Source of the DNA: Anaerolineae bacterium
Lineage (GTDB): Bacteria > Chloroflexota > Anaerolineae > B4-G1 > DUEL01
Reading direction: 5' to 3'
Length of the DNA stretch: 64,000 bases
Assembly: GCA_041082215.1 (NCBI GenBank)
Contig: JBDOIF010000152.1
Location: 1,235 to 65,234, forward strand
The notes under the pieces were generated by a model. It was not told the origin of the DNA. It ran no database searches and saw only the letters and a list, made by a program, of their open reading frames with translations. Shown here piece after piece: positions 10,276-61,753 of this stretch; position 1 is the first letter of the stretch; every line of letters begins with the position of its first letter. The translations under genes and the position numbers were made by a program.

Positions 10276-10322
10276 AGCTCACCTCCTCTGAACGTGAAAC
10301 CTGGAACCTTAACCGGGGTTAT

Positions 10323-10357
10323 CAGACGTCAAACGTCAGACGTCATATGTCGAACGA
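10323..10357. repeat. Tandem heptanucleotide repeat (CAGACGT/CAAACGT, about 5 units), same family as 59150..59238
   Basis: cagacgtcaaacgtcagacgtcatatgtcgaacga, in the etfB / LysM-gene intergenic space. Confidence 0.6.
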
Positions 10358-10430: not shown

Positions 10431-11456
10431 CTACGGATTCACGATAAGGATCTGTCCCACCTCGATTGTAGCATCCGCCCCTATGCCGTTGAGCGACGCC
10501 AGCGTGTCCACGCTCATCCCGAAGCGGCGGGCGATGGAGTAGAGCGTGTCGTGCGGCTGGACATAATAACCACAGGTCCCCCGCGGCGGCGGGACCGGGA
10601 TCAGGATCATCGCCCCGGCCTGGACCTGCTCCGGGTCGCTGATCTGGCTGGCGGCGGCGATGGCCTGAGCGGTGGTGCCGAACTTCAGCCCGATGCGGAA
10701 GAGGTTCTCCCCCGGCTGGACGACGTAATAGATGCCTCTTCTGCTTGCCTGAGGGGAGGGTTGAGGAGAAGCAGCGGCAGTCGGCTGGGCCGTCGGCACG
10801 GCCGTTGGCTGGGCCGTCGGCCCGGCGGTCGGCTGGGGCGCTTCCCCTTCTCCCCCCTCTCCCACAACGCTGACCAGCCCGGCGGAGAGGGGGGCGATCT
10901 CCAGAGGGTCTCCCTCAGCGTCGAGCGCCGCAACCTGCTCAAAGCGGAGAGCGGAGCTTCCCGCAGCCAATCCGCGCAGGATGAAGGAGGCCACCACCCC
11001 GTTTCCATCCACCCCGGTTCCAGGAGCCATCGCTACCTGGTAGAGGATGCGTCCGCCCTCCTGATCCACCCGGTTTTCCATCACCTGCCCCGGCGGTGGC
11101 ATCCGCCCCGGCGCGATCTGCACCCCCTCCGCCCCGGGGTCGGCATCCTCCACACCGACCAGGGTGGGGGCAAAGCTCAGCTCCACCAGGATGCCGTTCA
11201 ACTGTCGGGCACCGTCCACCCAGATGTTGACGGTGGCCGTTTCCCCTACCCCCAGCTCGACGACCGCCGGCTCCAGATAAAGGCTGGGGGGAAGCCCCTC
11301 CGCCGTCGCAACCGGACTGAGTTCAAAGGGGACGATCGGGGTGGGGACCGTCGGCGCGGTCGTCGGTGTGGTCGGCGTCTCCTCATAGACAGGCTCCACG
11401 CAGCCGGATAGAAGCAACGTCAGGCCGATCCCCAGCATCCATTTCCAAACACGCAT
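10431..11456 (-). CDS. Secreted lipoprotein with two C-terminal LysM domains
   Basis: Lipobox LLLSGC near the N-terminus (start set at MRVWKW); a Pro/Thr/Ala linker; two LysM motifs (YYVVQPGENLFRIGLKFG and YYVQPHDTLYSIARRFG). Confidence 0.75.
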   Translation of the reverse strand: MRVWKWMLGIGLTLLLSGCVEPVYEETPTTPTTAPTVPTPIVPFELSPVATAEGLPPSLYLEPAVVELGVGETATVNIWVDGARQLNGILVELSFAPTLVGVEDADPGAEGVQIAPGRMPPPGQVMENRVDQEGGRILYQVAMAPGTGVDGNGVVASFILRGLAAGSSALRFEQVAALDAEGDPLEIAPLSAGLVSVVGEGGEGEAPQPTAGPTAQPTAVPTAQPTAAASPQPSPQASRRGIYYVVQPGENLFRIGLKFGTTAQAIAAASQISDPEQVQAGAMILIPVPPPRGTCGYYVQPHDTLYSIARRFGMSVDTLASLNGIGADATIEVGQILIVNP

Positions 11457-14119: not shown

Positions 14120-14400
14120 TGGCCGTGCACCCCCCTTCGAACCGCACTGCCCGGCTTGTCGTTGCCGTCCGGCTCCGGGCCGGCACCCCTGCGGCACCCG
14201 GGAGGGACTCTTTACCGTTGCTTCCTTCCGGACCTGGCGGGGTTCGGAGGCTCCCGCCGCGCAGGACCAGCCCCTCAACGCCTTCCGACACCGGCAGTCC
14301 CGTTCAGGCAAGCCCTCGGGGGGGAATTCGACCCCGCTATGGCGGATTGCGGGTACAGGGCACCGCCAGCTCCCCGTCTAGCACGGCCAGAGCTCATCTT
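14120..14400 (-). ncRNA. ffs: Signal recognition particle RNA, long (Bacillus-type) form with Alu domain
   Basis: The minus strand carries the domain-IV motif CAGGTCCGGAAGGAAGCAAC (complement of 14221..14240). The 5' part GGCCGTGCTAGACGGGGAGCTGGCGGTGCCCTGTACCCGCAATCCGCCATAGCGGGGTCGAATTCCC is near-identical in pattern to the B. subtilis scRNA Alu domain, and the 3' GAAGGGGGGTGCACGGCC matches the scRNA 3' end. Ends are approximate. Confidence 0.75.
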
Positions 14401-27900: not shown

Positions 27901-29124
27901 CGCCATACGGAATACAGCCACTGCGGCCAGGAAAAGCGGCAGAAGCCCCACATAGGCCCCACCCTCGACGTAGTTCTTGATCCCCCAGTCGTGGCTGAGG
28001 ATCGGCTCCCCGTGGGCGTTGACGGAGGCGGGGACCGTGCGCCACTGGAAAAGGTCAAAATAGCTGTGGTGAGCCGGGTTGCCGAAGAAATTGGGGATGG
28101 CGAAGGCGATAATGCGGCGCGGCGGGTATGCCCAGCCGAGCACCTGCTGGAGTGTCGGTGCCGCCTGTGCGCTGCGGAAGCCGGTGGTGGCCACCTCGTA
28201 GAGGGGGACGAACTGCACCGCCCCCAGCGCCAGCCCCAGCAGGACCATCAGGACCAGCCATGCCGCCGTTCTTAACCGCAAAGGGCACAAAGTCTTCTTT
28301 AAGGAAACCACGGAGGGAGCCCTGAAAACTCTGCGAAACTCTGTGTTCTCCGTGTCTCCGTGGTTAGAACCTGATGGAACTGCATAAGTCCTGCCAATCA
28401 ACCGCCAGACGGCGTAGGCTCCGGTCACCAGGAGCACGAAGTAGGTGTTCTCAGCGTGGCCCGCCAGCATCTGGCAGCCCAGCCCCATCCCTCCCAGGAG
28501 CACCCAGGGAAGGCTGGATGGGCGGCTACCCAGTGCCGGCCGCTGCTGGATCACCCGCTCCACCATCGCCAGGATGAAGGGAAGCCAGGAAGAGCCTGCG
28601 ATGATCATCGGGTGGACCACGGAGACCAGCATAAAACCGCTGAACTGGAAGGTGATCCCGGCGATGAGCCCCCCCAGCCGGCTGGCCCCCAGCGTACGGG
28701 CGAGGAGGTAAGCCCACCAGCCAGCCAGCCCCAGTTGGAGCCAGGTAAAGACCCCGTAGGCCCGCCACAGTGGGAGGACATAGAAGACAAGGCTCAGGGG
28801 GTAGAGGACCGAATGCTGCCCGTTGGCGAAGAAGGGATGGCCGGCGAAGACATAGGGGTCCCAGAGAGGCAGCTCCCGCGCCTGGATTGCTTCCACCAGA
28901 AGCCGCTTCCAGGCATAGTTTTCCAGGATCAGGTCGGCCAGCAGGTGGTTTTGGGGGACCCCCACTCCCAGCTCCTCTGCTGCTGCCCGATAGGGCTGGT
29001 GCAGAAAGAGAGCGTCGGCAGGGAGGAGGGTGCGGTCGTCCAGGACGACGGGGGCGAAGAGGATCAGCGGCAGAAAGAGGAGGATGGAGGCCGCAGCCAG
29101 GGTGGAAAGCCTGCAACGGATCAT
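24895..29124 (-). CDS. Giant fusion protein: N-terminal YfhO-family membrane glycosyltransferase-like domain (about 900 aa) fused to a C-terminal Wzx/MATE-like polysaccharide flippase domain (about 500 aa)
   Basis: The N-terminus ([12 protein letters not shown]...[22 protein letters not shown]...) is typical of YfhO. From [37 protein letters not shown] onward it is a canonical Wzx-family flippase. Start set at MIRCRL (29124), overlapping the upstream GT2 stop by 4 bp. Confidence 0.6.
26713..26775. repeat. Palindromic TTGCTGG-type heptamer array embedded in frame in the YfhO-Wzx CDS
   Basis: gttgctggttgctgattgctggttgctcg / ctgccagcaaccagcgaccagtgaccag are reverse complements of each other; translated as [14 protein letters not shown]. 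Confidence 0.55.
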
Positions 29125-42977: not shown

Positions 42978-43319
42978 CTACTCTACCTCTATGCTTTCCA
43001 CCAGCAATTCCTTGCCCCCCACGGCGATCGGCTGGAGCAGGCCGCACTGAGGGCAGGTCCAATCCGCTCCATCCGGCTCATACTCCGCCCCGCAGTTCAG
43101 ACAACGGAAGCGGGCGGGCACGTGTCGGAAGGCCAGCTCTGCCCCTGCTGCCATCGTATCCCGGCTGAGGAAATCGAAGTAGAACTGAACCGATTCGCCG
43201 ACGATGCCGGAGAGCTCCCCCACGGCCAGGTGGATGCGAAGGATACGATTCGCCCCGGCCTGTTTGGCGTGGGCCAGGGCGATGTCCAGAATGGATTGGG
43301 TTACGGAGAGTTCATGCAT
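42978..43319 (-). CDS. hypA: Hydrogenase/metalloenzyme nickel-insertion protein HypA
   Basis: MHELSVTQSILDIALAHA, C-terminal CLNCG...CPQCG zinc motif. Confidence 0.85.
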   Translation of the reverse strand: MHELSVTQSILDIALAHAKQAGANRILRIHLAVGELSGIVGESVQFYFDFLSRDTMAAGAELAFRHVPARFRCLNCGAEYEPDGADWTCPQCGLLQPIAVGGKELLVESIEVE

Positions 43320-43334
43320 ACGGAATACGGAGCA

Positions 43335-43364
43335 CGGAGTACGTATTGCGTGTTGCGTACTCCG
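43335..43364 (-). terminator. Repeat-derived hairpin (CGGAGTACG / CGTACTCCG) immediately 3' of fdhA
   Basis: cggagtacgTATTGCGTGTTGcgtactccg lies 2 nt after the fdhA stop; TACGGAA/TATTGCG repeat family. Confidence 0.45.
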
Positions 43365-43365
43365 T

Positions 43366-45471
43366 TTACGAAACCGGCTCCACCCGCACCGCGCAGACCT
43401 TGTACTCCGGGATTTTGGCGAGGGGGTCCAGCGCGGCGTGGGTGAGCGCGTTCGCCGCCGCCTCCGCGTAGTGGAAGGGGATGAAGACGACGCCGGGCCG
43501 GATGCGCTTCGTCAGCCGCACCGCAACCTCGATCTCCCCTCGGCGACTCATCACCCGCACCCGCCGAGCGCCGTCCAGGCCGATGCGGGCCGCGTCGTCC
43601 GGATGCATCTCCACATACGGCTCCGGCGCCTCCTGCTCCAGTTTGGGCGACCGGCGGGTCATGGTGCCGGTGTGGAACTGGAACATGGTGCGGCCCGTGG
43701 TCAGGATGAACGGGTACTCCTCATCGGGCAGTTCCGCCGCCTCCTGGAACTCTATCGCGTGGAAGCGGCCCAGGCCTCGGGTGAACTTCTCCTTGTGCAG
43801 GTACGGGGTGCCGGGGTGTTCGGCCGACGGGACGGGCCACTGCAGGGAGCCCTCCCGGTCCAGCCGCTCGTAGGTGACGCCGCCGTAGGAGGGCGCGACG
43901 CGGGCGATTTCAGACATGATTTCGGCGGGGGAGGAGTAGTCCCATTGCGTATTGCGTATTGCGTATTGCGTATCGCGTGCTGCGTGTTGCGTAAGGCGCT
44001 TGGCCAGTTCACAGAGGATTTCCCAGTCGGCCTTGGCCTGGCCCGGCGGGTCCACGGCCTTCCGCACCCGCTGGATGCGCCGGTCGGTGGCGGTGAAGGT
44101 GCCGTCTTTCTCGGCAAACGATGCGCCCGGCAGAACCACGTGCGCCAGTTGTGCCGTCTCCGTCAGGAAGATGTCCTGAACGACCAGGAAGTCCAGTTTC
44201 TCCAGGCACTCCCGCGCGTGGTGGATGTCGGGGTCGGAGAGAAGGGGGTTCTCGCCCATCACGAAGAGGCCCCGCAGGCGCCCCTCCCCTGCCGCGTGGA
44301 CCATCTCCACGACGGTCATGCCAACCTTGTCGGACAACCCCTCCATGCCCCAGGCGGCCTCAAATCTGGCCTTCGCCTCCGGCGAGGTGACGGGCTGGTA
44401 GGCCGGGTAGACGTTGGGGAGGCCGCCCATGTCGCAGGCGCCCTGGACGTTGTTCTGGCCCCGCAGGGGGTTGACCCCGCCGCCAGGGACGCCCAGATTG
44501 CCGGTGAGCATGGCCAGGTTGGCTACGCTCTTGACGTTGTCGGTGCCGGTGGTGTGCTGGGTGATCCCCATTGCATAGAGAATGGCGGCAGGCTTGTTCT
44601 GGGCGTACATCCGCGCCGCGGCGCGCAGGTCCTCCGCTGGGATGCCGGTAATCTCCTCCACCCGCTCCGGCGGGTACTGCTGGACCACCTGCCACATTTC
44701 CTCAAAGCCCTCGGTCCGCTGCCGGATAAACTCCTGGTCGGCCAGTTCCTCGGTGATGATGACGTACATCAGGCCGTTGAGCCAGGCGACATCGGTGCCG
44801 GGGCGGGGGCGCAGGTAGAGGTCGGCCATCCGGCCGATCTGGACCTCGCGCGGGTCGATGACGACAATTTTCGCCCCCCGCTCCTTTGCTTTGAGGACAT
44901 GGCTGGCGATGAGGGGGTGGCCCTCGGTGGTGTTGGAGCCGGTGATCAGGAAGCAGCGGGTGTATTCGCTGAACTCCGGGATGGAGTTAGTCATCGCGCC
45001 ACTGCCGAATGCGGCGGCCAGACCGGCCACCGTGGGGGCGTGTCAGAGACGGGCGCAGTGGTCCACGTTGTTGGTCCTGAAGACGGCGCGGGCCAGTTTC
45101 TGGGCCAGGTAGTTCTCCTCGTTGGTGCACTTGGCGGAGACCAGGAAGCCCAGGGCGTCGGGGCCGTATGTGTCGCGGATGTGGAGCAGCCGATCCGCGA
45201 CCAGGCCCAGCGCCTCGTCCCAGGACGCCTCCCGGAACCCCCCCTGTGTCCCCCCCGCATGCAGGGGGGAGCGGATGAGGGGGGTCGTCAGCCGGTCCGG
45301 GTGGCGGACGAAGGCGGTGGCGTTCCAGCCCTTGATGCAGAGTTTCCCCCCGCTGACGGGGTGCTCCTTCGCCGGCAACACCCCGACGATTTCGCCGTCC
45401 AGCACCTGGATGTAGAGGCCGCATCCGGTGCCGCAGTAGGGGCAGGTAGTGAAGATGTTTCGGTAGTCCAT
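43366..45471 (-). CDS. fdhA: Formate dehydrogenase catalytic subunit (FdhF/FdhA-type), selenocysteine-containing; in-frame TGA at 45043..45045 read as Sec
   Basis: Tracked ORFs 45043..45513 and 43366..45030 are in the same frame and together align with FdhF: CPYCGTGCG...NNVDHCARL-[TGA]-HAPTVAGL (E. coli: CARV-U-HGPSVAGL). Downstream MGITQHTTG, RGQNNVQGACDMG and a C-terminal KVCAVRVEP are molybdopterin-enzyme motifs. N-terminus placed at MDY (45471); the tracked upstream 14 aa are repeat-derived. Confidence 0.85.
43944..43995. repeat. TTGCGTA heptanucleotide tandem array (about 7 units) in frame inside fdhA
   Basis: attgcgtattgcgtattgcgtattgcgtatcgcgtgctgcgtgttgcgtaag, translated as ...[12 protein letters not shown]..., an insertion relative to the E. 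coli FdhF alignment. Confidence 0.7.
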
Positions 45472-45513
45472 AGGGTACTCCGTGTTACGTATTCCGTATT
45501 GCGTGTCCTGCAT

Positions 45514-47193
45514 TCACGCATCCAGACTCTTGAGAAAATCATTCGCTGCTTTTGCCAGTAATCGCGCTCTTTCCTTGAGAAACTGCTCGTAGTGCTCAAT
45601 GCTCCATTGCCCTTCTAACTGGGCCTTATTTCCAACAGCTTGCGCAAATGAATCGGGGATCAAGTGCTCAAGAAGTAACTGTTCGGAAATGTTGAATTGG
45701 GCCAGGTATTTTGCAGGTGGTTTTCCAGACAACCGGTTCACGTTTGTGCTTTCGTTCAGTACCGTGATGTTTGCCAGAGCATGAATCCGGTCATCAGGGA
45801 CACCGGCACTTCTCAGCACGCTGCGAGGATAAACGTGGTGCCACTGGGGTTCAAACCCACTCACGATTAAAGCACCTGTCCTATCATAGCCAATACGGGT
45901 TTGGTCTACCCAATCCCGCGCTTCTCGGTGAAACACCACCAGATAAAGCATCAGACGCAAGAAACGGCTACCAGCGCAGTCATACCGGCTCAGAAACTCT
46001 TCGGGGGTAATTTCGGAAGGCGCGTGTAAGCGCCCGTATAGGTTCTTTAAAGCCTGATCAAAGTCCTGCGCTTCAGTAATTGCGCGCACGTCCTCGTTCA
46101 AACTGGTAATCGCTGAACCGCTGTAACGGCCATCCCAGTTTGCCAGAAGAAACCAGCGAACAGCCTTGCTAAATCGGTAATTTTTCGTATCTTTCCAGCG
46201 GTGATGTAGCACGAAGAGAGGGATCAGACTGTTAACCGAGGGGAGCAACTTTACTGACATAATCCCGACCTCGGCCAGCCGTTTTCGAACTTCCACGATT
46301 ACTTCTCTGGTTTGTTGCCAAACAACGCTCAGGTTTTGAGGATTCCAAAAGTCTTTAGGGACTTCCTTCAGTCGGGCTCGCCCTTTACCAATGCCAGTCA
46401 TTGTGCGGACGAAGATGCCGGCATCCAGTCCCCATCCTATATCCTCCAACTCGCCGCAAAAGGGAAGATATTCCTCTCGCACCCAGCCTGGATTCCGTAC
46501 AGCGGCCAGCGCCAGAACAACATCGGCTTCCTTCACTCGCGTCCCTTCTTGATTCAACCGAGCGAAAATCTCGGCCACGTCTTCCACTTCATGGTTGATC
46601 CGAATTATGGGAATATCTCGCTCACGGATTTGCCACAAGCGCTGTAAGCGAGCATGGACTTTTGCAAACAGGTCCATCATCTGGGCAGGCTCAGGCTGAA
46701 TGGATGCCACAATCTCTTGAGCCAGTAGAGTTAGTGTCTCAACGTTCTCTGTGCTCAGTACACGGCGCAGGCTAATCCAGTGTGGATCGCGGCGACGGAT
46801 AGGGTTCGGCAGAGCAAACTCCAGATGGTCTTCGTCAGGGAGAAGATTTACCATCACATCATACCGCTCCAGGGCCCTGTTCCATTCCTGTGCGCTATCC
46901 CACCAGTATGGCTTTTGCCCTAAAAGCAGGCAAAGAGCAACCGTCCGTTGTTGCCCATCTACAATCCAAAGCGAAGCCTGCGTACCCTGGGCCGTTTTGG
47001 ACTCCTGGTACGAATACGAAGAGGAGTCCCAGAGCAAAAACGAACCGATCGGATAATCGCGATAGAGTGACTCCGCCAGTTTCTTGACCTGCTCCGGATC
47101 CCAAACGAATTCTCGCTGAAATTCAGGAATATCCACGCTCTTGTTGACCGCCTGTTTGACAATCTCCCGAACTTTCTGTTGCTCAAGTGCCAT
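45514..47193 (-). CDS. GmrSD-family type IV restriction endonuclease (DUF262 ParB-like + DUF1524 HNH-like)
   Basis: DUF262 N-terminus (IPEFQREFVW...DGQQR) and DUF1524 C-terminus (His/Asn motifs); markedly AT-richer than its surroundings. Confidence 0.75.
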   Translation of the reverse strand: MALEQQKVREIVKQAVNKSVDIPEFQREFVWDPEQVKKLAESLYRDYPIGSFLLWDSSSYSYQESKTAQGTQASLWIVDGQQRTVALCLLLGQKPYWWDSAQEWNRALERYDVMVNLLPDEDHLEFALPNPIRRRDPHWISLRRVLSTENVETLTLLAQEIVASIQPEPAQMMDLFAKVHARLQRLWQIRERDIPIIRINHEVEDVAEIFARLNQEGTRVKEADVVLALAAVRNPGWVREEYLPFCGELEDIGWGLDAGIFVRTMTGIGKGRARLKEVPKDFWNPQNLSVVWQQTREVIVEVRKRLAEVGIMSVKLLPSVNSLIPLFVLHHRWKDTKNYRFSKAVRWFLLANWDGRYSGSAITSLNEDVRAITEAQDFDQALKNLYGRLHAPSEITPEEFLSRYDCAGSRFLRLMLYLVVFHREARDWVDQTRIGYDRTGALIVSGFEPQWHHVYPRSVLRSAGVPDDRIHALANITVLNESTNVNRLSGKPPAKYLAQFNISEQLLLEHLIPDSFAQAVGNKAQLEGQWSIEHYEQFLKERARLLAKAANDFLKSLDA

Positions 47194-47233
47194 AGATGTT
47201 TCTCCTTCCGTAAGTTGGCATCCAGCAGAAGCC

Positions 47234-47428
47234 TCATTCCTGCTCCGTTCGCCACGCCAGAATCTGGTGCTGAAGTTCCACAGAGGTATAGCGAGAACCC
47301 AGGTCCCTTAAGGCACCGGCCCATTCAAACCCTGGATGAGCCCGGACCTTCTTTTCACGCTTTGCCAGCAGAAACTCAATAAAATCCCGCACTTCCTGCC
47401 GGATGTCCGCAGGAAGCATCCGATGCAT
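47234..47428 (-). CDS. DUF2281-like small protein (antitoxin-like)
   Basis: 64 aa with QEVRDFIEFLLAKREKK, the DUF2281 pattern. Confidence 0.45.
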   Translation of the reverse strand: MHRMLPADIRQEVRDFIEFLLAKREKKVRAHPGFEWAGALRDLGSRYTSVELQHQILAWRTEQE

Positions 47429-47447
47429 TATCTCACCTCCGCTATCT

Positions 47448-47520
47448 GCCCCTCCGCCAGCGTCAGCGACAGCGGCGGGGCGGCGAAGAGGTCGGCGCCG
47501 GGTGCGTAGCCCAACAAATC
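47448..47520. repeat. 73-bp direct repeat, copy A (about 88% identical to 48104..48176)
   Basis: cccctccgccagcgtcagcgacagcggcggggcggcg...cccaacaa; the first 38 nt are identical to copy B. Confidence 0.8.
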
Positions 47521-47523
47521 GGC

Positions 47524-47772
47524 CTATGCTGGAGAGAGAGCGACTTCCAGGGTTCTCATCCGGCGGTCAACCTCCTCCAGCATATCCTGAATCGCTCTGA
47601 TCGCCTCCTCGTCAAAAAGCACTTCTCCGCACTGGTCACATACCCAGGCCGGGACAGCATCCACAATGAGATGATACCCCTTGCGCGTGACCGTATAACT
47701 GACCGGTTTTCGGACCAGCGTCCCTTTACAATAGAAGCATTCCATGACAATCACCTCTTTCGGGTGCGCCAA
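47524..47772 (-). CDS. YgiT-type (MqsA-like) zinc-finger antitoxin
   Basis: MECFYCKG...VCDQCGEVLFDEEA is the YgiT-type zinc-finger motif. Confidence 0.7.
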   Translation of the reverse strand: MAHPKEVIVMECFYCKGTLVRKPVSYTVTRKGYHLIVDAVPAWVCDQCGEVLFDEEAIRAIQDMLEEVDRRMRTLEVALSPA

Positions 47773-48083
47773 TCAGGTTCCCAGTAGTCCTCGCTGGGCA
47801 GGTAAGCAGTGATGATTGCCAGATAATCCTTCTTCGGCGCACAGACTACGTGCACCGGACGACCCATATGCCCCCAACCCAGCATCAGGCAACTATGCCC
47901 CCGGGCATCCTCCGGATAGTCTTCTATCACTTCGCCGTAGAGAACCACCGCGCGAACTTCATCCGGAGAAATCATCCGGTCAGGAGCATTCATCTGATGT
48001 AAGGCGTGCGGCAGGTAAAGAATCCGCTTCGCAGCAGCTTCTCTAACCTTCTCCAGAATGCTCCTATGGCTCTCGGGTCTCAT
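47751..48083 (-). CDS. DUF4258-family toxin-like protein
   Basis: MRPESHRSILEKVREAAAKRILYLPHALHQMNAPDRMISPDEV...; its ATG (48083..48081) overlaps the TGA of the upstream fdhB-like gene by 1 nt. Confidence 0.6.
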   Translation of the reverse strand: MRPESHRSILEKVREAAAKRILYLPHALHQMNAPDRMISPDEVRAVVLYGEVIEDYPEDARGHSCLMLGWGHMGRPVHVVCAPKKDYLAIITAYLPSEDYWEPDWRTRKR

Positions 48084-48913
48084 CACTCCATACCTACCAT
48101 CGGCCCCTCCGCCAGCGTCAGCGACAGCGGCGGGGCGGCGGCGAGGTCCGCTCCTGGCTCGTACCCCAACAACTCCCCCACATCGCGCCGGATCAGGTCG
48201 TAGAGGACGGTCAGCGGGATGTGGGCCGGGCAGGTCAGTTCGCACTGGCGGCAGCCGACGCAGCGGGCCGCCATGTGCATGGCCCGGATAAGGTGGAAGG
48301 ACGGGAAGGGCGGGGCCAGCACCCCCGGCTCCACCCAGAGCGGGTCCTCCAGCGCGCAGGCCTCGCAGAAGCACTCCGGGCAGATGTTGCGGCAGCCGTA
48401 GCACTTGATGCATTTGGCGAACTGCTCCCGCCAGAAGGCCCAGCGCTCCGCCCAATCCATACTCTCGTACCGGGCGATGATGGGGTTGGGCGAGCCAGCG
48501 AGAGCTGGCGTCCCCAGCGCCACGGCTTGAGGCCAGCCCTCCGTCTTCGGGAAGGGGGCATCGCAGTGGCACGCCTCCGCCTCCTCCGCGGTGCAGGCCA
48601 CCCCCAGGATGTACAGGCGCTCGGGGTCTATCTGATTCCGCTTGGCCATCTCCACCAGCGCGCGCAGATCGCAGGCACGGGCGACAATGCCGAAGCGGGC
48701 CTGCGGGTAGCGCTTCTGGAGCAGGGAGACGACGGACGCCAGAGGGTAGCGAGGGGAGAGAACCAGTTCGGAGAGGTCATCTCCCTGGCGGAAGAGATAC
48801 GGCGCGGTGCCCACAGCCGTCCGCCGCAGGCCGACAACGCCGTCCAGTTCAGGAAGTTTCTCCGCCACGTGGGCGCGCAGGGTGTCCAAAAGGTCGTTAT
48901 CGGTCATCGGCAA
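48083..48913 (-). CDS. FrhB/FdhB-family iron-sulfur protein (putative formate dehydrogenase beta / electron-transfer subunit)
   Basis: An FrhB_FdhB-like core (FGIVARACDLRALVEMAKRNQIDPERLYILGVAC) and two C-terminal Cys clusters (CIKCYGCRNICPECFCEAC; CVGCRQCELTCP). Its last ~25 codons are encoded by repeat copy B. Confidence 0.5.
   Translation of the reverse strand: MPMTDNDLLDTLRAHVAEKLPELDGVVGLRRTAVGTAPYLFRQGDDLSELVLSPRYPLASVVSLLQKRYPQARFGIVARACDLRALVEMAKRNQIDPERLYILGVACTAEEAEACHCDAPFPKTEGWPQAVALGTPALAGSPNPIIARYESMDWAERWAFWREQFAKCIKCYGCRNICPECFCEACALEDPLWVEPGVLAPPFPSFHLIRAMHMAARCVGCRQCELTCPAHIPLTVLYDLIRRDVGELLGYEPGADLAAAPPLSLTLAEGPMVGME
48104..48176. repeat. 73-bp direct repeat, copy B, forming the 3' end of the fdhB-like gene
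   Basis: See copy A; together they bracket the YgiT/DUF4258 cassette. Confidence 0.8.
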
Positions 48914-49316: not shown

Positions 49317-49677
49317 ACAGGGTCAAGCCCTTTTCCAGAATTTCTCTAATGAAGAAATCGCCTTCCGCCAGAGCCTGCTGGATTTCCGCGGGCGTTCTGA
49401 CCAGAATATCCACCGGAAAGGGGCGGGGGCGCAGCAGGCGGGAGACCTTCAGGTACCGCTCGACGGGGGGGGCCACGCTCTCCATCACCACCAGCAGGTC
49501 CACATCGCTATCAGTTGTGGCTCCACCCCGAGCATAGGAACCAAAGAGGACGATTTTCTCTGGCTGCAGCGCATCGGCCAGCCGCCGGATCAGCGCGTGA
49601 AAGGCTCGGGCGTCCACTTCTGGAAACCCCCGGGCCCGAATCGGGGTGGGAAGATCTACAGCCGCTCGTTCAGCCAT
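49300..49677 (-). CDS. Nucleotidyltransferase (MNT) antitoxin
   Basis: LFGSYARGGATTDSDVDLLVV; start uncertain (set at MAERAAV). Confidence 0.65.
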   Translation of the reverse strand: MAERAAVDLPTPIRARGFPEVDARAFHALIRRLADALQPEKIVLFGSYARGGATTDSDVDLLVVMESVAPPVERYLKVSRLLRPRPFPVDILVRTPAEIQQALAEGDFFIREILEKGLTLYERHS

Positions 49678-50063
49678 TCCGAGTGCTCCCCCAGCCAGCG
49701 CCGGTAAGCCGAAGCGACCGCCTCCAGGTCGGTCAGGCGCTGGCTGCAAATCTCGTACAATTCCTCGGGACTCACCTCGTGGTAAAAGTGAACCAGCCGG
49801 TTTCTGTAGCCAGCCAGTATGCGCAACAGAGCCGCTTCTTCGGGAGAAAGAACAGCCTGCTCTTCCAGCCGAATAGCGATCTCCCAGTATTCGCTTACAC
49901 CGGTCCCGAAGCCCTTCGCCAGAATATACCGGCCCAGGTCCAGCAGGGCCTCCAGCGCCCGGTGCAGGCAGGATTCCGCTGTCCAGAGATTGCGCCGATC
50001 GGCGAAAAAAGCATCCCGGTCGGTCAGGGGCAGAGAGCGGATTTCCCCGATCATCCGCTCCAC
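49656..50063 (-). CDS. hepT: HepT-like (DUF86) HEPN toxin
   Basis: RNLWTAESCLHRALEALLDLGRYILAK...YRNRLVHFY; R-x4-HxY motif. Confidence 0.75.
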   Translation of the reverse strand: MERMIGEIRSLPLTDRDAFFADRRNLWTAESCLHRALEALLDLGRYILAKGFGTGVSEYWEIAIRLEEQAVLSPEEAALLRILAGYRNRLVHFYHEVSPEELYEICSQRLTDLEAVASAYRRWLGEHSEWLNERL

Positions 50064-50109
50064 CCAGGCCAGACGATCCGCACTACACGCCGGGAAAGGG
50101 TGCCAGGAG

Positions 50110-50538
50110 TCATACCGGTTTTCCCAGGATCAACGCGATGCGCTCCCGCTCCAGCGGGGCGAGATCCCCCGCACGGCGCAGGACGTAGAGGTCGTACTCG
50201 TCGGCGTCGTCCTCGTCGCGGGCGTGGAGGCGCTCACCCCGGATAATCTCCGCTGCCAGGAAGGGGTCCGCGTCGTCCAGCGAGACCAGGTCCACCCTAT
50301 GGACGCCGAAGAGGTCCTCCAGGGCAATCGCCAGCCGGACCTTGTCGTGGACGGAGAGCCGGAGTCCCCGCGCGGGCTTCACCCCGATGTCCAGGTCGGA
50401 CGGGCCCGGGGTCAGAGCCGGGAGTCCCCCCTCCAGCCACGCCCGGGCCTCCCCGGCCCGGCTGCCGAAGGCATAGAGGATGTCCACGCCGAAGGATTCG
50501 CAGAGTTGCCGGAGCCGCACGCTCCGGTCCTCGTTCAT
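50110..50538 (-). CDS. mntA: MntA-like nucleotidyltransferase antitoxin
   Basis: ILYAFGSRAG...SDLDIGV. Confidence 0.75.
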   Translation of the reverse strand: MNEDRSVRLRQLCESFGVDILYAFGSRAGEARAWLEGGLPALTPGPSDLDIGVKPARGLRLSVHDKVRLAIALEDLFGVHRVDLVSLDDADPFLAAEIIRGERLHARDEDDADEYDLYVLRRAGDLAPLERERIALILGKPV

Positions 50539-51275: not shown

Positions 51276-51301
51276 AGCGTACTCCGTATTGCGTATTCCG
51301 T

Positions 51302-51802
51302 TTATGACATGGGCACTTCGCTCAGGAGTTCAGAAAGTTCGGCATCAGGGTCGGTGGTAGAGTAGAGATAGGGCGCGCTACTTTCACACAGTTGTACGAT
51401 ACCGGTGGTTTCCCGCTCCTCAGGAATAATAGAGAGGAGCAGGCGGACAATCTGGGTCAGCAGGTGGAGCCGATGAGCCAGGACAGCCTCTTTCAGGCCA
51501 TGGCGCCCCTCGTAGTACCAGGTTCGGGCCTCGCGGGCGGAGCCCAGGGCGTACTCGTAGAATCGGGCCCGCTCCTTCCCGGACCGGCGGCTGTACCCTT
51601 CGGCGATGTTGGCGGCGATAGAACCCAGGGCCCGATATAACTGGTCGGCCAGGCCGCGCATCCGGGCATCCTCAGCCAGCACCGAAACATCGTGCCAGCC
51701 CAGGTCGGCAGCGAAGAGGGCCAGCCGGTACACCCGCATCTGCCAGAGCGGATCCGCCGTAATCTCCGACGGCACGCTCTGCAACCACTCCTCGTGCGTC
51801 AT
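51302..51802 (-). CDS. Four-helix-bundle protein (TIGR02436 / 23S-rRNA-IVS-protein family)
   Basis: MTHEEWLQS...YRLALFAADL...LGSIAANIAEGYSRRSGKERARFYEYALGSAREARTWYYEG is characteristic of this family; the tracked N-terminal 24 aa are repeat-derived. Confidence 0.7.
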   Translation of the reverse strand: MTHEEWLQSVPSEITADPLWQMRVYRLALFAADLGWHDVSVLAEDARMRGLADQLYRALGSIAANIAEGYSRRSGKERARFYEYALGSAREARTWYYEGRHGLKEAVLAHRLHLLTQIVRLLLSIIPEERETTGIVQLCESSAPYLYSTTDPDAELSELLSEVPMS

Positions 51803-51825
51803 CGCCCACCTCCAACGGAACATGG

Positions 51826-51870
51826 AGTACGGAATACGTGCTGCGTACTGCGTATTCCGTATTCCGTGCT
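51826..51870. repeat. TACGGAA-family palindromic repeat hairpin between the 4HB gene and hdrA
   Basis: ggagtacggaatacgTGCTGCGTACTGcgtattccgtattccgtgctcc. Confidence 0.6.
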
Positions 51871-51877
51871 CCACGCG

Positions 51878-53833
51878 CTACACCCAGACGCCCGCTAAGA
51901 GGCCCTCTATCTGCGCCACAATCTGCTCGTCGGTAAAGTGAAGGCCGGTGATGGCATGGGATGGGCAGGTGGCGACGCAGGTGCCACATCCCTGACACAG
52001 CGCCGGGTTTACCTGCGCTTTCCCTTCCACGCGGGAGATCGCGGAGTAAGGGCAGGCCAGGATGCACTCACCGCACCCCACGCAGGCCTCCCGATCCACC
52101 ACGGCGACGGTGGGCGATATGGTGACCTCGCCCTGGTTGAACAACCGCACCACCTCCAGCGCCGCCGCCCCGGCATGGGCCACCGTGTCGGGGATGTCCC
52201 GTGGCCCCTGGGCACAGCCGGCCAGGAAGACCCCCGCCGTGGCCGTCTCCACCGGCCGCAGTTTGGGGTGCGCTTCGGCAAACCAGCCGTCGGGTGTGCG
52301 GCCCAGGCCGAACAACGGGGCGATGCGGTCCACATCGGGCTGCGGCTCGATGGCCGACTCCAGGATCACCAGGTCCACGTCCACAAACACCAGCCGTCCC
52401 AGGTTGGCATCCTCTCCCTTCACGCGGAGTTTGCCATCCGGCATGACTTCCACCTCGGCTCCCTTGCCCCGGACGAAGACGACTCCCTCCTCCTGCACCC
52501 GCTCGTAGAACTCCTCATAGGCCTTGCCGAAGGCCCGCATATCCATATAGAAATCGTACACCTCGGCTCCGGTCTTATCCCGCACCTGGTGGGCGTGCTT
52601 GAGGGCGTACATGCAACAGATGCGGGAGCAGTAAGGGTGAGCGTTCTCGTCGCGGCTGCCGACGCAATGGATGATGGCCACCCGCTGGGGCTTCTTCCCC
52701 TCGGCGGTGACGATCTCCCCCCCGGTGGGGCCGGTGGCGCTGGTGAGCCGCTCAAACTGTAGCCCGGTGATGATATTGGGCGAGAGGCCGTAGGAATACT
52801 GCGGAAGTTTCGCGGGGTCCCACATCGCAAACCCGGTCGCCACGATGATGGCGCCGACCTGAACTTCGAGCAGTTGATCCTCCTGGGTGTAATCAATCGC
52901 CCCGGTGGGGCAGAACTTCTCGCAGACCTTACACTTGCCCTGGGTAAAGAACCGGCAGTTCTCCCGGTCAATCACCGGGATGTTCGGGATGGCCTGGGCG
53001 AAGGGGCGGTAGATGGCCTTCCGCTTCCCCATCCCCGCCTCGAAGGCTGTATCCACCACTTTGGTGGGGCACTTCTCCTGGCAGAGGCCACAGCCGGTGC
53101 ACTTCTCCTCATCCACCGACCGCGCCCGTTTGCGGATGCGGGCGGTGAAATGGCCCACATAGCCGGAGACCTCTTCAACTTCACTGTAGGTCAGGAGGGT
53201 GATGTTGGGATGCCGACCGGCATCCATCATCTTGGGGCCCAGGATTCAGGTACTACAGTCCAGCGTGGGGAAAGTCTTATCCAACTGGGCCATATGGCCG
53301 CCGATGGATGGCTCCCGTTCCACCAGATAGACCGGGTAGCCCGCGTCAGCGATGGAGAGGGCGGCCTGGATGCCGGCGATGCCGCCGCCCACCACCAGCG
53401 CCGCTTTTGTCACCGGCTCCCGCCGGGGCTCCAGCGGGGCCTGGTATGCCACCCGGAAAACCGCCGACCGCACCAGCCGCTTCGCCTTCTCCGTGGCTGC
53501 CTCTTTATCATCGGTGATCCAGGAGACATGCTCGCGGATGTTGGCCATCTGGAAGAAATAGGGGTTGAGCCCGGCGGCCCCCAGGGCTCGCTGGAAGGTC
53601 GTCTCGTGCATCCGGGGGGTGCAGGACGCCACCACGACCCGGTTCAGGCCCAGGTTGCGGATGTCCTCCTGGATCATCAACTGGCCCGGCTCGGAGCACA
53701 TGTACTTGTACACCCGGGCGACGGCGACGCCAGGCAGTTTAGAAGCCATCTCTGCGACCGCCTCCACATCCACCGTGGCCGAGATATTGATGCCGCATTC
53801 ACAGATGTAGACGCCGATTCGGGGTTGCTCCAT
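51878..53833 (-). CDS. hdrA: Heterodisulfide reductase subunit A, selenocysteine-containing paralog 1; in-frame TGA at 53246..53248
   Basis: Tracked ORFs 53246..53971 and 51878..53230 are in one frame: ...GGGIAGIQAAL...KTFPTLDCST-[TGA]-ILGPKMMDAGRHPNITLLTYSEV..., which aligns with the HdrA consensus KTFPTLDCS-x-C-ILxPKMVEVxRHPNI with TGA at the Cys position. Also an FAD Rossmann motif, four or more ferredoxin Cys clusters, and an N-terminal YICECG. Start set at MEQPRIGVY. Confidence 0.85.
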
Positions 53834-53865
53834 AGCGAGCGCTCCTTCCATTTCGGTCTCAGACA

Positions 53866-55065
53866 TCAGGACTCTGCAGCCTGAATAGACTGCCAGAGCA
53901 GTTCCATTACATCCATTGCCCGCACGCGGATGCGGTTCTGCCGCGCTCCTTCCTGGAGGGTGCGCTTGCACTGCTGGCAGGCGGACGCCAGGATGCTGGC
54001 TCCTGTCGCCTGGATCTGGGCCAGCCGTTTTGCCGCGACGCCCATTGTGACAGCAGGGTCAGCCATCTCTACATCTCCGCCGCCGCCACAGCACAGCGCG
54101 CTCTGGCGAGACATAGACATCTCTCTCAATTCCAGCCCCGGAATGCGGGTCAGTATTTCCCGGGGTGGATCATATACGCCGCTCTTGCGCCCCAGGTCAC
54201 AGGGGTCGTGATAGGTCACCACGCCTTCCACTGGTCCCAATGGCGGGGCGGATTGTGCCATTCGTTCTGCCAGGAACTCGGTAGCATGCTGGAAATGGAG
54301 CCCTCGCACATCCGCCATCTCCGGATACAGGTGGGACCAGGCGTAGTAACAGGACGGACAGGTGAAGACCACCCTTTCCGCGCCCACCCTGCGCACCTGT
54401 TCCAGGTTGTGTCGGGCGATTTCCGCCATCTGATCCCGCAGTCCCGCGACATAGAGCGGGTATCCGCAACACCACTCGTCTCCGCCCAGGGTGGTAAACT
54501 CCACCTCTGCCCGCTCCAGCACTTTGACCGTTGCCTGAGGGATGGAGTACGCGCGCGGGTAGAACGACCCCACGCATCCCACAAAATAAACGACCTCCGC
54601 CGTTCGCCGCAGGGGTTGCACGCCCACCGGTGGGTCGGGCATATTCTGGCTCCATACCAGACGGTTGGCGTTCTCGTCGCCGGAGATGTTGTACTGGCTG
54701 GTGACGGTCTGGCTGACTCGCAGCAGCAGTTGGGGGACTTCCAGGCCCTGGCGCTGGACGTACTCCCGAAGGGCCACCATCGTATCCGTGATCTGGATGC
54801 CCCGGGGGCAACGGACCTGGCAGGACTTACAAACCGTGCAGAGCCAGAAGGTGCGGCTGGTCAATACCTCCGCCGTTAGTCCCAGCTGCACCATTCGCCA
54901 CAACTGACGCGGGGTATAATCCATCGCGTAGGAGGTGGGACAGGAAGCGGAGCATGTGCCGCACTGGATGCAGGAGAGAATCTTTTCCCAGCGGCCGGGG
55001 GTCACCTGCTGAGCAAACGTCCGGTCCGCCTGGGCGAGGTCCAGGATTTCAGGGGGGTTGGTCAT
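53866..55065 (-). CDS. HdrC-HdrB fusion protein (HdrD/GlpC-like; 2x[4Fe-4S] + two CCG domains)
   Basis: N-terminal CIQCGTCSASCP...CTVCKSCQVRCP; C-terminal CCG motifs (DEWCCGYP..., LCCGGGG). Confidence 0.8.
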   Translation of the reverse strand: MTNPPEILDLAQADRTFAQQVTPGRWEKILSCIQCGTCSASCPTSYAMDYTPRQLWRMVQLGLTAEVLTSRTFWLCTVCKSCQVRCPRGIQITDTMVALREYVQRQGLEVPQLLLRVSQTVTSQYNISGDENANRLVWSQNMPDPPVGVQPLRRTAEVVYFVGCVGSFYPRAYSIPQATVKVLERAEVEFTTLGGDEWCCGYPLYVAGLRDQMAEIARHNLEQVRRVGAERVVFTCPSCYYAWSHLYPEMADVRGLHFQHATEFLAERMAQSAPPLGPVEGVVTYHDPCDLGRKSGVYDPPREILTRIPGLELREMSMSRQSALCCGGGGDVEMADPAVTMGVAAKRLAQIQATGASILASACQQCKRTLQEGARQNRIRVRAMDVMELLWQSIQAAES

Positions 55066-55256: not shown

Positions 55257-56522
55257 TTATCCGCCCGCCTGGGGCAAAAAGCGGCGAACGGTGTGCAGAA
55301 GATGGTCCGGGTCTATCGGTTTGCTGATCCAGGCGTCTATCGGGATGTGCAGGGTATCGGGCAGAAGGCCAGCGTACTGGCTGCTATCAATGCTGGAGAC
55401 CATCACCACCGGGATAGGCCGCAGGGCCGGGTCCGCCGCGATTTCCTGGGCGACACCCGCGCCTTCCAGCGGCGTCGCCATCATCACGTCCAGCATGACC
55501 AGGTCCGGCTTCTCCTCCCGCATCATCTTCAACGCCTGCTGCCCGTTGCTGGCGGTCGCGACCTGATACCCCGCTTTGCTGAGAATCCGCCGGGAGAGGT
55601 CCACGAAGTCCGGGTCATCGTCCACCACCAGAATCCTCAGCGCCACTCCTGGCTTGACCTCCACCTTCTTCTTCGGTCGCAGATAGATGAACCAGTAGGC
55701 CAGGCCGACAAAGCCTGCGCCGCCGATGATGTTCCCGATGGTCACCGGCAGCAGATTTCTCAGGAAGAAGCCCCCCCAGGTAAGCGCGGCGAAGTCGGCG
55801 GGCGTCTTGCCGATGGCTTCCCAGAAAGCCGCTGGTGCCCATGACTTGATGAAAAGGCCGATCGGGATGAGGTACATATTGGCGATACTGTGCTCAAACC
55901 CGGCGGCGACAAAGGCAGTAATGGGGAAGATGATGGAGAGGATTTTATCCGTTGTGGACCGGGCCGACGCGCAGAGCCACACCGCCAGGCAGACCAGCGC
56001 ATTACACATAATGCCCAGCGCGGTGGCCTGAAGGAATCCCAGGCTGCATTTCGCGTTGGCGATAGAGAGTGCGTTCAATCCCAGCGCGCCCGAGGCAAAG
56101 GTGTACTGGCTGGTAAGAAACATCACCAGCGCGGTGAAGATAGAACCGATGAAGTTGCCCGCGTAGACAATGGCCCAGTTGCGCAGGAGTTGGACAGTGG
56201 TGACCCGGCGGCTGGCGTAGGCCATCACAATGAGATTGTTGCCGGTGAACAGTTCTGCCCCAGCGACCACGACCGCGATCAGGCCGAGGCAGAAGACCAG
56301 GCCGCCTGCCAGCCGGATCAGTCCATACGGCACACCAGCCGCGCTCAAGCCGGTCGTCACGGTGGTCAGGAAGATACCACCCGTTCCGATAAACGCGCCG
56401 GCCAGAACGGCAAGAGCGAACATCGTCCAGAAATCCAGGTTCGCTTTGGTGACCCCCACCTCTTCCATACGGCTGGCCATTTTCGCCGGTGGGAAGGCAT
56501 CAATTTGCAATTCACTGCTCAT
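55257..56522 (-). CDS. Formate/nitrite transporter (FocA/FNT) fused to a C-terminal response-regulator receiver domain
   Basis: An FNT core (FLTTVTTGLSAAG...LFTGNN...AAGFEHSIANMY) followed by RILVVDDDPDFVDLSRRILSKAGYQVATASNGQQALKMMREEKPDLVMLDVMM..., i.e. a CheY-like REC with the phospho-acceptor Asp context. Confidence 0.75.
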   Translation of the reverse strand: MSSELQIDAFPPAKMASRMEEVGVTKANLDFWTMFALAVLAGAFIGTGGIFLTTVTTGLSAAGVPYGLIRLAGGLVFCLGLIAVVVAGAELFTGNNLIVMAYASRRVTTVQLLRNWAIVYAGNFIGSIFTALVMFLTSQYTFASGALGLNALSIANAKCSLGFLQATALGIMCNALVCLAVWLCASARSTTDKILSIIFPITAFVAAGFEHSIANMYLIPIGLFIKSWAPAAFWEAIGKTPADFAALTWGGFFLRNLLPVTIGNIIGGAGFVGLAYWFIYLRPKKKVEVKPGVALRILVVDDDPDFVDLSRRILSKAGYQVATASNGQQALKMMREEKPDLVMLDVMMATPLEGAGVAQEIAADPALRPIPVVMVSSIDSSQYAGLLPDTLHIPIDAWISKPIDPDHLLHTVRRFLPQAGG

Positions 56523-59149: not shown

Positions 59150-59238
59150 GTCGGGCGTCAAACGTCAGGCGTCAAACGTCAAACGTCAAACGTCAGGCGT
59201 CAAACGTCAAACGTCAAACGTCAAACGTCAGGCATCAA
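59150..59238. repeat. Tandem array of about 13 GTCAAAC / GTCAGGC heptamers
   Basis: gtcgggcgtcaaacgtcaggcgtcaaacgtcaaacgtcaaacgtcaggc...gtcaggcatcaacc, between mvhD2 and lplA. Confidence 0.85.
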
Positions 59239-59665: not shown

Positions 59666-59715
59666 CTACGGAATACGCAGTACGTACTACGTATTGCGTG
59701 TCGCGTATTGCGCCC
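59666..59715. repeat. TACGGAA/TATTGCG-family repeat overlapping the hdrA2 3' end
   Basis: ctacggaatacgcagtacgtactacgtattgcgtgtcgcgtattgcgc; it encodes the last residues (AMRAQYATRNT) of the tracked HdrA2 ORF. Confidence 0.6.
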
Positions 59716-61678
59716 GCATCGCGAAGATCGCCCCCATCATCTCCGAAACCAGTTGCCGGTCGGTGAAGTGACGGAGGGTGATCGCTTTGGAAGGGCAGGC
59801 TCCGGCGCAGGTGCCGCACCCCTTGCAGAGCGCATCGATCACATGGGCGACCCTGCGCTCTTTCAGGTATTCGATGGCCGCGTACGGACAGGACTGGATA
59901 CACTGCCCGCAGCCGGTGCACATCAGCTCGTCCACGAGGGCGGTGGCCGACTCTACCTTCACCTCTCCCTGGCCGATGAGGGAAAGGACCCGCGCCGCCG
60001 CCGCCGAGCCCTGGGCCACCGAGTCCGGGATGTCCTTCGGCCCCTGAGCGCACCCGGCGACGAGCACCCCGTCGGTCATCGTCGCCACCGGGTCCAGCTT
60101 GGGGTGCTTTTCCCTGAACCACCCGTCGGCGTCGGTGCTGATGCCGAAGAGACGGGCCACTTCCCGGCTGTCGTGGCGCGGTTCCAGGCCGATCGCCAGC
60201 ACCACCATATCCACCGGCAGCCGTCGCTGCCGCCCCACCAGGGAATCGTCGAACTGGACGACCAGTTTTCCCTCCTCCTCCGGCCCGCGTGCAGCGTCCG
60301 TCACCTGGGCCACCTTCCCGCGGATGAAGTGGATCCCCTCATCCAGCATCCGGTGGTAGAACTCCTCATATAGCTTGCCGGGGGCGCGAATGTCAATATA
60401 GAAGTTATATACCTCGGCGTGGGTCTTATGGCGGATCAGGTGGGCCAGCTTCAGGGAGTACATACAGCAGACCCGGGAGCAGTATTCGTGGTACTTCTTG
60501 TCCCGGCTGCCCACGCAGTGGATGATGGCCACCTGTCGGGGGACCGTTTCCCCATCCCGCAGGACCACCTTGCCGCCGGTAGGACCAGCCCCGCTGAGCA
60601 TCCGCTCCATCTCCAGGCTGGTGAAGACGTTGGGGAAACGGCCGTAGCCGTACTGGGGAATCCGTCGGGCGTCGAAGGGATCGAAGCCGGTGGCGAGGAT
60701 GATGTTGCCCACCTGGACCTCCAGGATGGTGTCCTGCTGGTTGTAGTCTATGGCGCCGGTGGGGCAGACCTTTTCACAGAGGCGGCAACGGCCTTTGGTA
60801 AACCAGAGGCAGTTGTCGCGGTCAATGACGGGGACGGGGGGCACTGCCTGGGCGAAGGGGCGGTAGACCGCCTTCCGATACCCCAGCCCCGCCTCGTAGG
60901 CGGCGTCAACGACTTTCGTGGGGCACTTTTCCTCACACGTACCGCATCCGGTGCACTTCTCTGCATCCACCGACCGGGCCCGAACGCGGATGCGGACCAC
61001 AAAGTTGCCCACATAGCCGGAGACGCTTTCCACCTCGCTGTAGGTCAGGAGATTGATGTTGGGATGCCGACCGGCATCCATCATTTTGGGCCCGAGAATT
61101 CAGGCACTACAGTCGAGCGTGGGGAAGGTCTCATCCAGTTGAGCCATCCGGCCGCCGATGGAAGGCTCCCGTTCCACCAGATAGACCGGGTAGCCGGCGT
61201 TGGCCAGCTCCAGGGCCGCCTGGATGCCGGTGATCCCCCCGCCGACGACCAGCGTGGCCGGGTTGATGCGCACCCGGTTTTCCTCCAGGGGCTGGTGGTG
61301 GCGCACCCTTAGGACCGCCGCCTCGACCAGGGCTTTTGCCTTCCCGGTGGCGATCTCGGGGTCATCGTGGACCCAGGAACACTGTTCGCGGATGTTGGCC
61401 ATCTCGAAGAAGTAGGGGTTGAGACCTGCCTCTGCCACAGCTCGCTGGAAGGTCGGCTCGTGCATCCGCGGGGTGCAGGAAGCCACCACCACCCGGTCCA
61501 GTCCCAGCTCCTGAATGTCCTTTTTGATCAGCTCCTGGCCCAGGCTGGAACACATGAAGCGGTAGTCGCGGGCCACGGCCACCCCCGGCAGGTCGGCGGC
61601 CCAGCGGGCCACCTCCGCCACGTCTACCACACCGGCGATGTTGGAACCACAGTGGCAGATGTAGACGCCGATCTTCAT
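59687..61678 (-). CDS. hdrA: Heterodisulfide reductase subunit A, selenocysteine-containing paralog 2; in-frame TGA at 61100..61102
   Basis: Tracked ORFs 61100..61708 and 59687..61084 share a frame: ...ETFPTLDCSA-[TGA]-ILGPKMMDAGRHPNINLLTYSEV...; the same architecture as paralog 1 (about 75% identity by eye). Start set at MKIGVY. Confidence 0.85.
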
Positions 61679-61753
61679 CGAGCACCCCCATTTGTAGTTG
61701 TGCGGCACTTCGCTACGCTTCGTGCCTCAATACGAACACCCAACCGTTTGTAG

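Follow-up and report, generated by a model that had tools for sequence, protein, structure and literature searches.

An in-frame UGA codon and a conserved downstream hairpin in the formate dehydrogenase gene fdhA of an uncultured Anaerolineae bacterium: a probable selenocysteine codon with a bacterial SECIS element

Among bacterial selenoproteins, FdhA, the alpha subunit of formate dehydrogenase, is the most widespread; HdrA, a subunit of heterodisulfide reductase (Hdr), likewise represents a known selenoprotein family (PMC1794560, PMC13326102). The hairpin called selenocysteine insertion sequence (SECIS) has a stem of 6–8 bp, and in it a conserved loop G lies about 20 nt after the UGA codon (PMC4605307). 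According to a 2026 review (PMC13188914, Fig. 2), the consensus bacterial SECIS (bSECIS) has an apical loop of 3–9 nt on an upper stem of 4–16 bp, at least one G in loop positions 1–2, usually followed by G or U, a distance of 16–37 nt separating the UGA from this loop, and a minimum free energy that does not exceed −7.5 kcal/mol. The present analysis concerns a candidate for such an element in the gene fdhA, located in a stretch of 64,000 nt (contig JBDOIF010000152.1 of assembly GCA_041082215.1; hereafter the window) from an uncultured Anaerolineae/Thermoflexales bacterium. A preliminary description of this DNA had proposed that an in-frame UGA of fdhA is a selenocysteine (Sec) codon with a SECIS hairpin downstream. 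With a probability that we put at roughly 0.93, the UGA is the active-site selenocysteine codon of an FdhA with a molybdenum or tungsten bis-pyranopterin guanine dinucleotide (Mo/W bis-PGD) centre, and the hairpin at 45032..45012 is a bacterial SECIS.

The fdhA coding sequence occupies 43366..45471 on the minus strand and consists of 701 codons including Sec143, with a TAA stop at 43368..43366. The TGA is codon 143 (45045..45043, minus strand) and lies in the motif DHCARL-U-HAPTVAGL, where the minus strand reads AAC AAC GUG GAC CAC UGC GCC CGU CUC UGA CAC GCC CCC ACG GUG GCC GGU CUG GCC GCC GCA UUC. From 45513 to 43366 the reading frame is open and this UGA is its sole interruption, and the G+C content at third codon positions (GC3) is 0.88–0.89 on either side of it. 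The ATG at 45513 reported by the open reading frame (ORF) finder is probably not the true start of the gene; the start was set at the ATG at 45471, because homologues begin with M(D/E)YRN and a GGAG lies 8 nt upstream.

The product is of the cytoplasmic FdhF / F420-type and carries, from the N- to the C-terminus, the Pfam domains Fe4S4 (PF04879), Molybdopterin (PF00384) and Molydop_binding (PF01568), all above their cut-offs and in the domain order of a selenocysteine formate dehydrogenase alpha subunit (Mo/W-bisPGD). The closest solved chains are 9t1s_L, 7qv7_S (FdhF of the hydrogen-dependent CO2 reductase, HDCR), 7bkb_D and 1aa6_A (E. coli formate dehydrogenase H, FDH-H). In 9t1s_L, which is the closest of them, a non-standard residue X is aligned with the fdhA UGA, and in the alignment to residues 113–188 of 1aa6 the UGA falls at about residue 140. 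The Sec/Cys-His motif CAR(L/V)-U/C-H, which corresponds to U140-H141 with the metal ligand of E. coli FDH-H, is found here as DHCARL-U-HAPT. The UGA sits at the catalytic Sec/Cys position, where full-length homologues carry Cys, and the preliminary description, which had placed the codon in an NNVDHCARL context of FdhA, had read the site accurately.

The distribution of the codon among relatives was determined by a locus scan with one genome per species, which gave 80 loci, mostly from metagenome-assembled genomes of Anaerolineae and Thermoflexales, with some from Syntrophia and other phyla. The best locus is 92% identical, and the loci with TGA span 56–92% identity. The fdhA copies in the scanned loci have TGA in 67 cases and TGC in 6; four further close Cys homologues were fetched as controls, so that 77 fdhA copies were compared, 67 with TGA and 10 with TGC or TGT at the Sec/Cys codon. 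Among the best 120 protein matches, 70 are full-length proteins with Cys, and the other 50 are ORFs of 530–558 residues that begin just past the UGA position.

Such fragments would be expected if the TGA were a real stop, in which case fdhA would be a pseudogene, or else a split gene with an Fe-S fragment of 142 residues and a catalytic fragment of 540–550 residues, the latter restarting at the GTG at 45030 or the ATG at 44994. In-frame GTG and ATG codons do follow the UGA, the identical public protein is a C-terminal fragment, and TGA is the commonest ordinary stop in the window, where it ends 27 of the 54 predicted genes; by the same count, a genome-wide reassignment of TGA was rejected. However, a nonsense mutation is implausible at the exact catalytic codon in 67 loci of such divergence with both halves coding-like, and a split would lose the metal-ligating residue. 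The synonymous sites just downstream are frozen specifically in the TGA genes, as described below, and shortened database entries are the expected output of gene finders at Sec codons. A real stop is considered highly improbable. If the UGA is read as selenocysteine, fdhA would encode a full-length selenoenzyme, of which the public record contains only the 542-residue fragment (P0006, 100% identical); at least 50 related entries are likewise shortened.

The putative SECIS apical hairpin lies at 45012..45032 on the minus strand and is composed of the 5' arm CGGUGGCC (45032..45025), the loop GGUCU (45024..45020) and the 3' arm GGCCGCCG (45019..45012). It begins 11 nt past the UGA, and the loop occupies +19 to +23, with G G U at +19 to +21. 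The preliminary description had located a stem of 6 bp, GUGGCC/GGCCGC, with the loop GGUCU, 12 nt after the UGA, and this stem is present; in the minimum-free-energy fold it is lengthened to 8 bp, from C45032-G45012 to C45025-G45019, of which the inner 7 bp are conserved. The 25-nt hairpin alone has a folding energy of −16.5 kcal/mol. The loop of 5 nt on a stem of 8 bp, the GG at loop positions 1–2, the spacing of 18 nt and this folding energy all lie within the four bSECIS constraints, and the hairpin is located directly 3' of an in-frame UGA that is aligned with Sec or Cys of homologues. The loop G residues at +19 and +20 agree with the distance of about 20 nt given in PMC4605307.

The conservation of the hairpin was analysed in the TGA set, which comprises 63–68 distinct sequences, depending on the stretch compared. 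In this set, the third-position entropies of the codons GUG GCC GGU CUG GCC (+5 to +9) are 0.11, 0, 0, 0 and 0.31 bits, and those of the flanking four-fold sites are 1.2–2.0 bits. In the 10 Cys homologues, the third positions of the same codons have 0.9–1.85 bits, while 8 of the 10 encode V-A-G-L-A. Of the 67 Sec genes, 64 have the third-position pattern GCTGC, versus 2 of the 10 Cys genes (Fisher p = 3e-7, an indicative value only, as the sequences are related). GGU, which is invariant as a loop codon, is seldom used for Gly in this genome (8%), and codon preference is therefore unlikely as the cause. Since the same 15 nt encode Val-Ala-Gly-Leu-Ala, constraint acts on them at the protein level as well as at the RNA level; this core, GUGGCCGGUCUGGCC, is near-invariant across the copies of Chloroflexota and of Syntrophia-type Deltaproteobacteria.

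Across 63 distinct sequences, the loop G G U is invariant and the helix is 92.9% paired. Pair 18-36 occurs as G-C (37), U-A (8) and A-U (2), with 10 double-sided changes, and single changes that preserve pairing are found at 20-34 (U-G to U-A), 21-33 (G-C to G-U or A-U) and 22-32 (G-C to G-U); two such single changes alter the amino acid, from Ala to Val and from Ala to Thr. Nucleotide conservation limited to the UGA genes and changes that keep the pairing are both directly observed at this site, together with the codon, the hairpin and its position. Judged from these comparisons, the hairpin stands far above chance by its position and conservation, not by its stability.

Two of the compared loci deserve separate description. 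In locus L084, whose Cys-type fdhA is 74% identical, the codon is TGC, yet the full 15-nt core GTGGCCGGTCTGGCC is kept in the region equivalent to 45012–45032; a recent conversion from Sec to Cys may have left this core behind as a 'fossil' SECIS. Locus L032 contains two tandem fdhA-like genes (TGA at 5998–6000 and 10540–10542), both with the GUGGCCGGUCUGGCC core, and its upstream hdrA is the Cys form. The presence of Sec and Cys forms of one operon in close relatives provides a clean natural control for the freezing of synonymous sites by a coding-region SECIS.

A scan of the window for in-frame TGAs with coding signal on both sides gave six candidates, three of which are genuine, namely fdhA and two hdrA genes, and each of these three has a GGUC-loop hairpin 18–27 nt downstream. 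The candidates at 20998, 35217 and 19714 were rejected, as they are adjacent genes that share a frame by chance and lack a GGUC hairpin. In HdrA paralogue 1 (frame 53971..51878), the UGA is at 53246..53248 on the minus strand in FPTLDCST-U-ILGPKM, followed by the hairpin GGAUGCC-GGUC-GGCAUCC at 53225..53208. In HdrA paralogue 2 (frame 61708..59687), the UGA is at 61100..61102 on the minus strand in FPTLDCSA-U-ILGPKM, and a hairpin of the same sequence, GGAUGCC-GGUC-GGCAUCC, lies at 61079..61062. Both hdrA hairpins have 7 bp and start 20 nt past the UGA, so that the loop begins 27 nt after it. The TGA and hairpin of paralogue 1 are kept in 18 related loci, with a compensatory change from C-G to U-A in L056 and L057, and other relatives have Cys and a variable sequence at this site. 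A search with Rfam at the hdrA site found nothing.

By analogy with work on E. coli, Moorella and Aquifex (PMC4605307), we infer SelB binding and actual selenium incorporation at the fdhA site. The elongation factor SelB would use its C-terminal winged-helix domains to grip the GGUCU loop together with the upper end of the helix, and the complex of SelB, GTP and Sec-tRNA(Sec) would be tethered at the entrance of the ribosomal mRNA channel when the UGA reaches the A site. Selenocysteine would then be inserted without chain termination, and Sec143 would serve as a ligand of the Mo or W centre.

Several observations weigh against the SECIS reading, and the first of them concern the Rfam covariance models. 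A scan of the window at curated thresholds reported no SECIS, and its sole match was the large signal recognition particle (SRP) RNA. In a local permissive search, SECIS_3 (RF01989; the identifier RF01990, given for it earlier, was incorrect) was the best match, with 58.1 bits and E = 2.8e-13 over the full model (1–59), which is below the gathering score of 63. SECIS_2 (RF01988, enterobacterial fdhF) gave 15.6 bits and E = 2.1, versus a gathering score of 70. When two close Cys homologues without UGA were scanned over the corresponding region, SECIS_3 scored 45.4 and 28.2 bits; much of its score therefore comes from shared coding sequence, and it was rejected as proof. The covariance-model check suggested in the preliminary description is thus not decisive.

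The structure of the SECIS_3 model, in which a bulged U separates a helix of 2 bp from one of 5 bp, the loop is a GUC triloop and the lower stem has 9 bp, does not describe this element either. Pairs 19-34 (G-G) and 15-42 are each unpaired in 63 of 63 sequences, and pairing overall is 73.8% for the SECIS_3 structure versus 89.2% for the continuous-helix structure; the bulged-U geometry was accordingly ruled out by the alignment. The full extent of the sub-threshold match (44990..45048, minus strand) includes a possible lower stem, 7–12 with 43–49 of alignment A1, which is 84% paired with many unpaired cells and poor support from comparison; an extended lower stem including the region after the UGA is not claimed. 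Because the element is below both curated thresholds and lacks the bulged U of both models, it should be placed under the general bacterial SECIS model, not under RF01989 or RF01988.

The stability of the hairpin is not exceptional. The SECIS-like structure that the preliminary description had called for under a thermodynamic fold was found, and the hairpin is the minimum-free-energy fold, though it is no more stable than dinucleotide-shuffled sequences (z = −0.6 to −0.7), and folding stability was rejected as proof of a SECIS. The window contains 12 hairpins that have a GGUC(N) loop and a stem of 6 bp or more, versus about 5 in shuffles. In addition, the compared sequences are kin, so that the counts of conserved and covarying cells are not counts of independent events. 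The 64-kb window, in which no tRNA was detected and 40 ORFs were domain-scanned, yielded no tRNA-Sec, selA, selB or selD, and in 60 related loci no tRNA-Sec lies near fdhA. The decoding machinery is thus predicted, not seen, although its presence in the genome is indirectly suggested by the three UGA genes and their SECIS-like hairpins. Finally, an insertion of 2.6 kb parts fdhA from its usual upstream partner and a heptamer array lies in its coding sequence, and the expression of fdhA in this genome is therefore not guaranteed.

The absence of Sec machinery from the window and the ordinary stability of the hairpin would also suit a reading in which the UGA is read through in another way, by near-cognate Trp or Cys insertion or by a suppressor tRNA, while the hairpin is not a SelB-binding SECIS and its conservation reflects another RNA or DNA function or codon preference. 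The Cys homologue L084, which keeps the whole 15-nt core, points in the same direction, but is simply explained by a recent Sec-to-Cys conversion. The conservation of the rare GGU speaks against codon preference, the loop of the known fdhF SECIS has these conserved nucleotides in the same register, and the Fisher test links the conservation to the TGA-bearing genes. Moreover, in two unrelated genes, both hdrA, a TGA is likewise combined with a hairpin that has a GGUC loop and the spacing of a bSECIS. Such a read-through is very unlikely, and the fdhA site is in all likelihood a genuine, conventional selenocysteine codon with a conventional bacterial SECIS, which is a textbook arrangement. The existing knowledge of selenocysteine decoding is unchanged by it; the main value lies in the correction of the annotation and in the physiology of the organism.

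The genes around fdhA are arranged on the minus strand in the order of a CCG-domain (HdrB/GlpC-like) gene, hdrA2(U), mvhD, lplA, hdrB, hdrC and a focA-receiver fusion, followed by an hdrCB fusion, hdrA1(U), a small inserted gene of the 23S rRNA intervening-sequence protein family and mvhD, and then by an MNT/HepT toxin-antitoxin pair, a short fdhB-like gene, the 2.6-kb insertion, fdhA(U), hypA and mobA. In the focA-receiver fusion (55260–56522, minus strand), which lies between the two hdr clusters, a FocA-like domain (formate/nitrite transporter) is joined to a response-regulator receiver domain at the C-terminus. Taken together, FdhA, two Sec-HdrA, two MvhD, the FdhB-like subunit and the formate channel point to an electron-bifurcating module of the Hdr type that depends on selenium and is linked to formate.

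The insertion of about 2.6 kb (45517–48175) lies between the fdhB-like gene and fdhA, which abut in the Cys-type loci L082–L084, and it may uncouple fdhA from the operon promoter. One of its two genes (45517–47193) has a GmrSD_N domain (type IV restriction-like) and a GC3 of 0.54, versus about 0.85 elsewhere. The other, a DUF4258 gene (47754–48086), is flanked by a 77-nt direct repeat (47444–47520 and 48099–48175, 87% identical), which duplicates the 3' end of the fdhB-like gene. Smaller insertions in the hdr-mvhD-fdh operon, at 49659–50538 and 51305–51874, contain the MNT (Polbeta)/HepT pair and, between hdrA1 and mvhD, the gene of the 23S rRNA intervening-sequence family.

Arrays of the heptanucleotide ACGCAAT/AATACGC occur at at least 7 sites, mostly at gene boundaries, with 24 matches versus 0.06 expected by chance. 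One of them (43942–43993) is inside fdhA, where 7.1 copies in frame encode 17 residues in place of the 'GAAG-F' of relatives; the arrays of the homologues P0041 and P0047 differ in length at this place. The others are at 27886–27915, 43318–43365, 45475–45504, 51278–51301, 51838–51867 and 59668–59713. Further heptamer arrays are (CGTCAAA)x10.7 at 59156–59230, (TCAAACG)x5 at 10322–10356 and (GCTGGTT)x5.4 at 26704–26741. The SRP RNA mentioned above is of the bacterial large (Bacillus-type) form (14123–14386, minus strand, 172 bits) and is the only Rfam family of the window at curated thresholds.

With respect to known systems, the proteins closest to this enzyme among solved structures are the F420-type or Hdr-associated FdhAB of methanogens (PDB 9t1s and 7bkb, E = 8e-238 and 6e-208), and the gene order hdrCB-hdrA-mvhD-fdhB-fdhA is that of formate-driven Hdr complexes. 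The neighbouring gene of 276 residues matches the C-terminal part of FdhB; it is short, without the N-terminal two thirds. Archaeal SECIS elements are located in untranslated regions (PMC4605307, PMC13188914), whereas the element described here is in the coding region, in the bacterial style.

The likeness to the SECIS of E. coli fdhF (RF01988) extends to its location: in both of the homologous enzymes, the element lies directly 3' of a Sec UGA that occupies the same codon. The resemblance of both the motif and the loop to E. coli fdhF, noted from the outset, was borne out, as the SECIS_2 consensus CGGuUGCaGGUCuGCaCC translates as V-U-H-G-P-S-V-A-G-L and the hairpins of both encode V-A-G-L. 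Counted from the U of UGA, G15, G16 and U17 and the loop G22 G23 U24 C25 U26 are in the same register. In E. coli, however, a GGUC tetraloop is closed by an A-U pair and the helix has a bulged U, whereas here C21 and U26 cannot pair, which leaves the five-nt GGUCU loop, and U17 is part of a continuous, GC-rich helix, where it forms a U-G wobble (U-A in 5 relatives). The FdnG/FdoG-type SECIS_3 shares the apex GCC-(G/A)GUCU-GGC with this hairpin, but the bulged U is absent here and all 63 sequences have G-G at model pair 19-34.

A further counterpart is the fdhA SECIS of Moorella thermoacetica, crystallised with winged-helix domains 3/4 of SelB (PDB 1WSU and 2UWM, both cited in PMC4605307). This hairpin presumably has a GGUCU pentaloop on a continuous GC-rich stem, with a top, GCC-GGUCU-GGC, equal to the apex found here. 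It differs in belonging to another phylum (Firmicutes) and in its lower helix. A bulge-less apex, GCC-GGUC(U)-GGC, is common to the fdhA hairpin and the two hdrA hairpins. A tentative and rather doubtful extension is that a distinct, Moorella-type SelB recognition code without the bulged U exists, possibly travelling between phyla with the selenoproteins of formate-driven Hdr/Fdh modules. If true, it would extend known biology and would not constitute a new kind of system.

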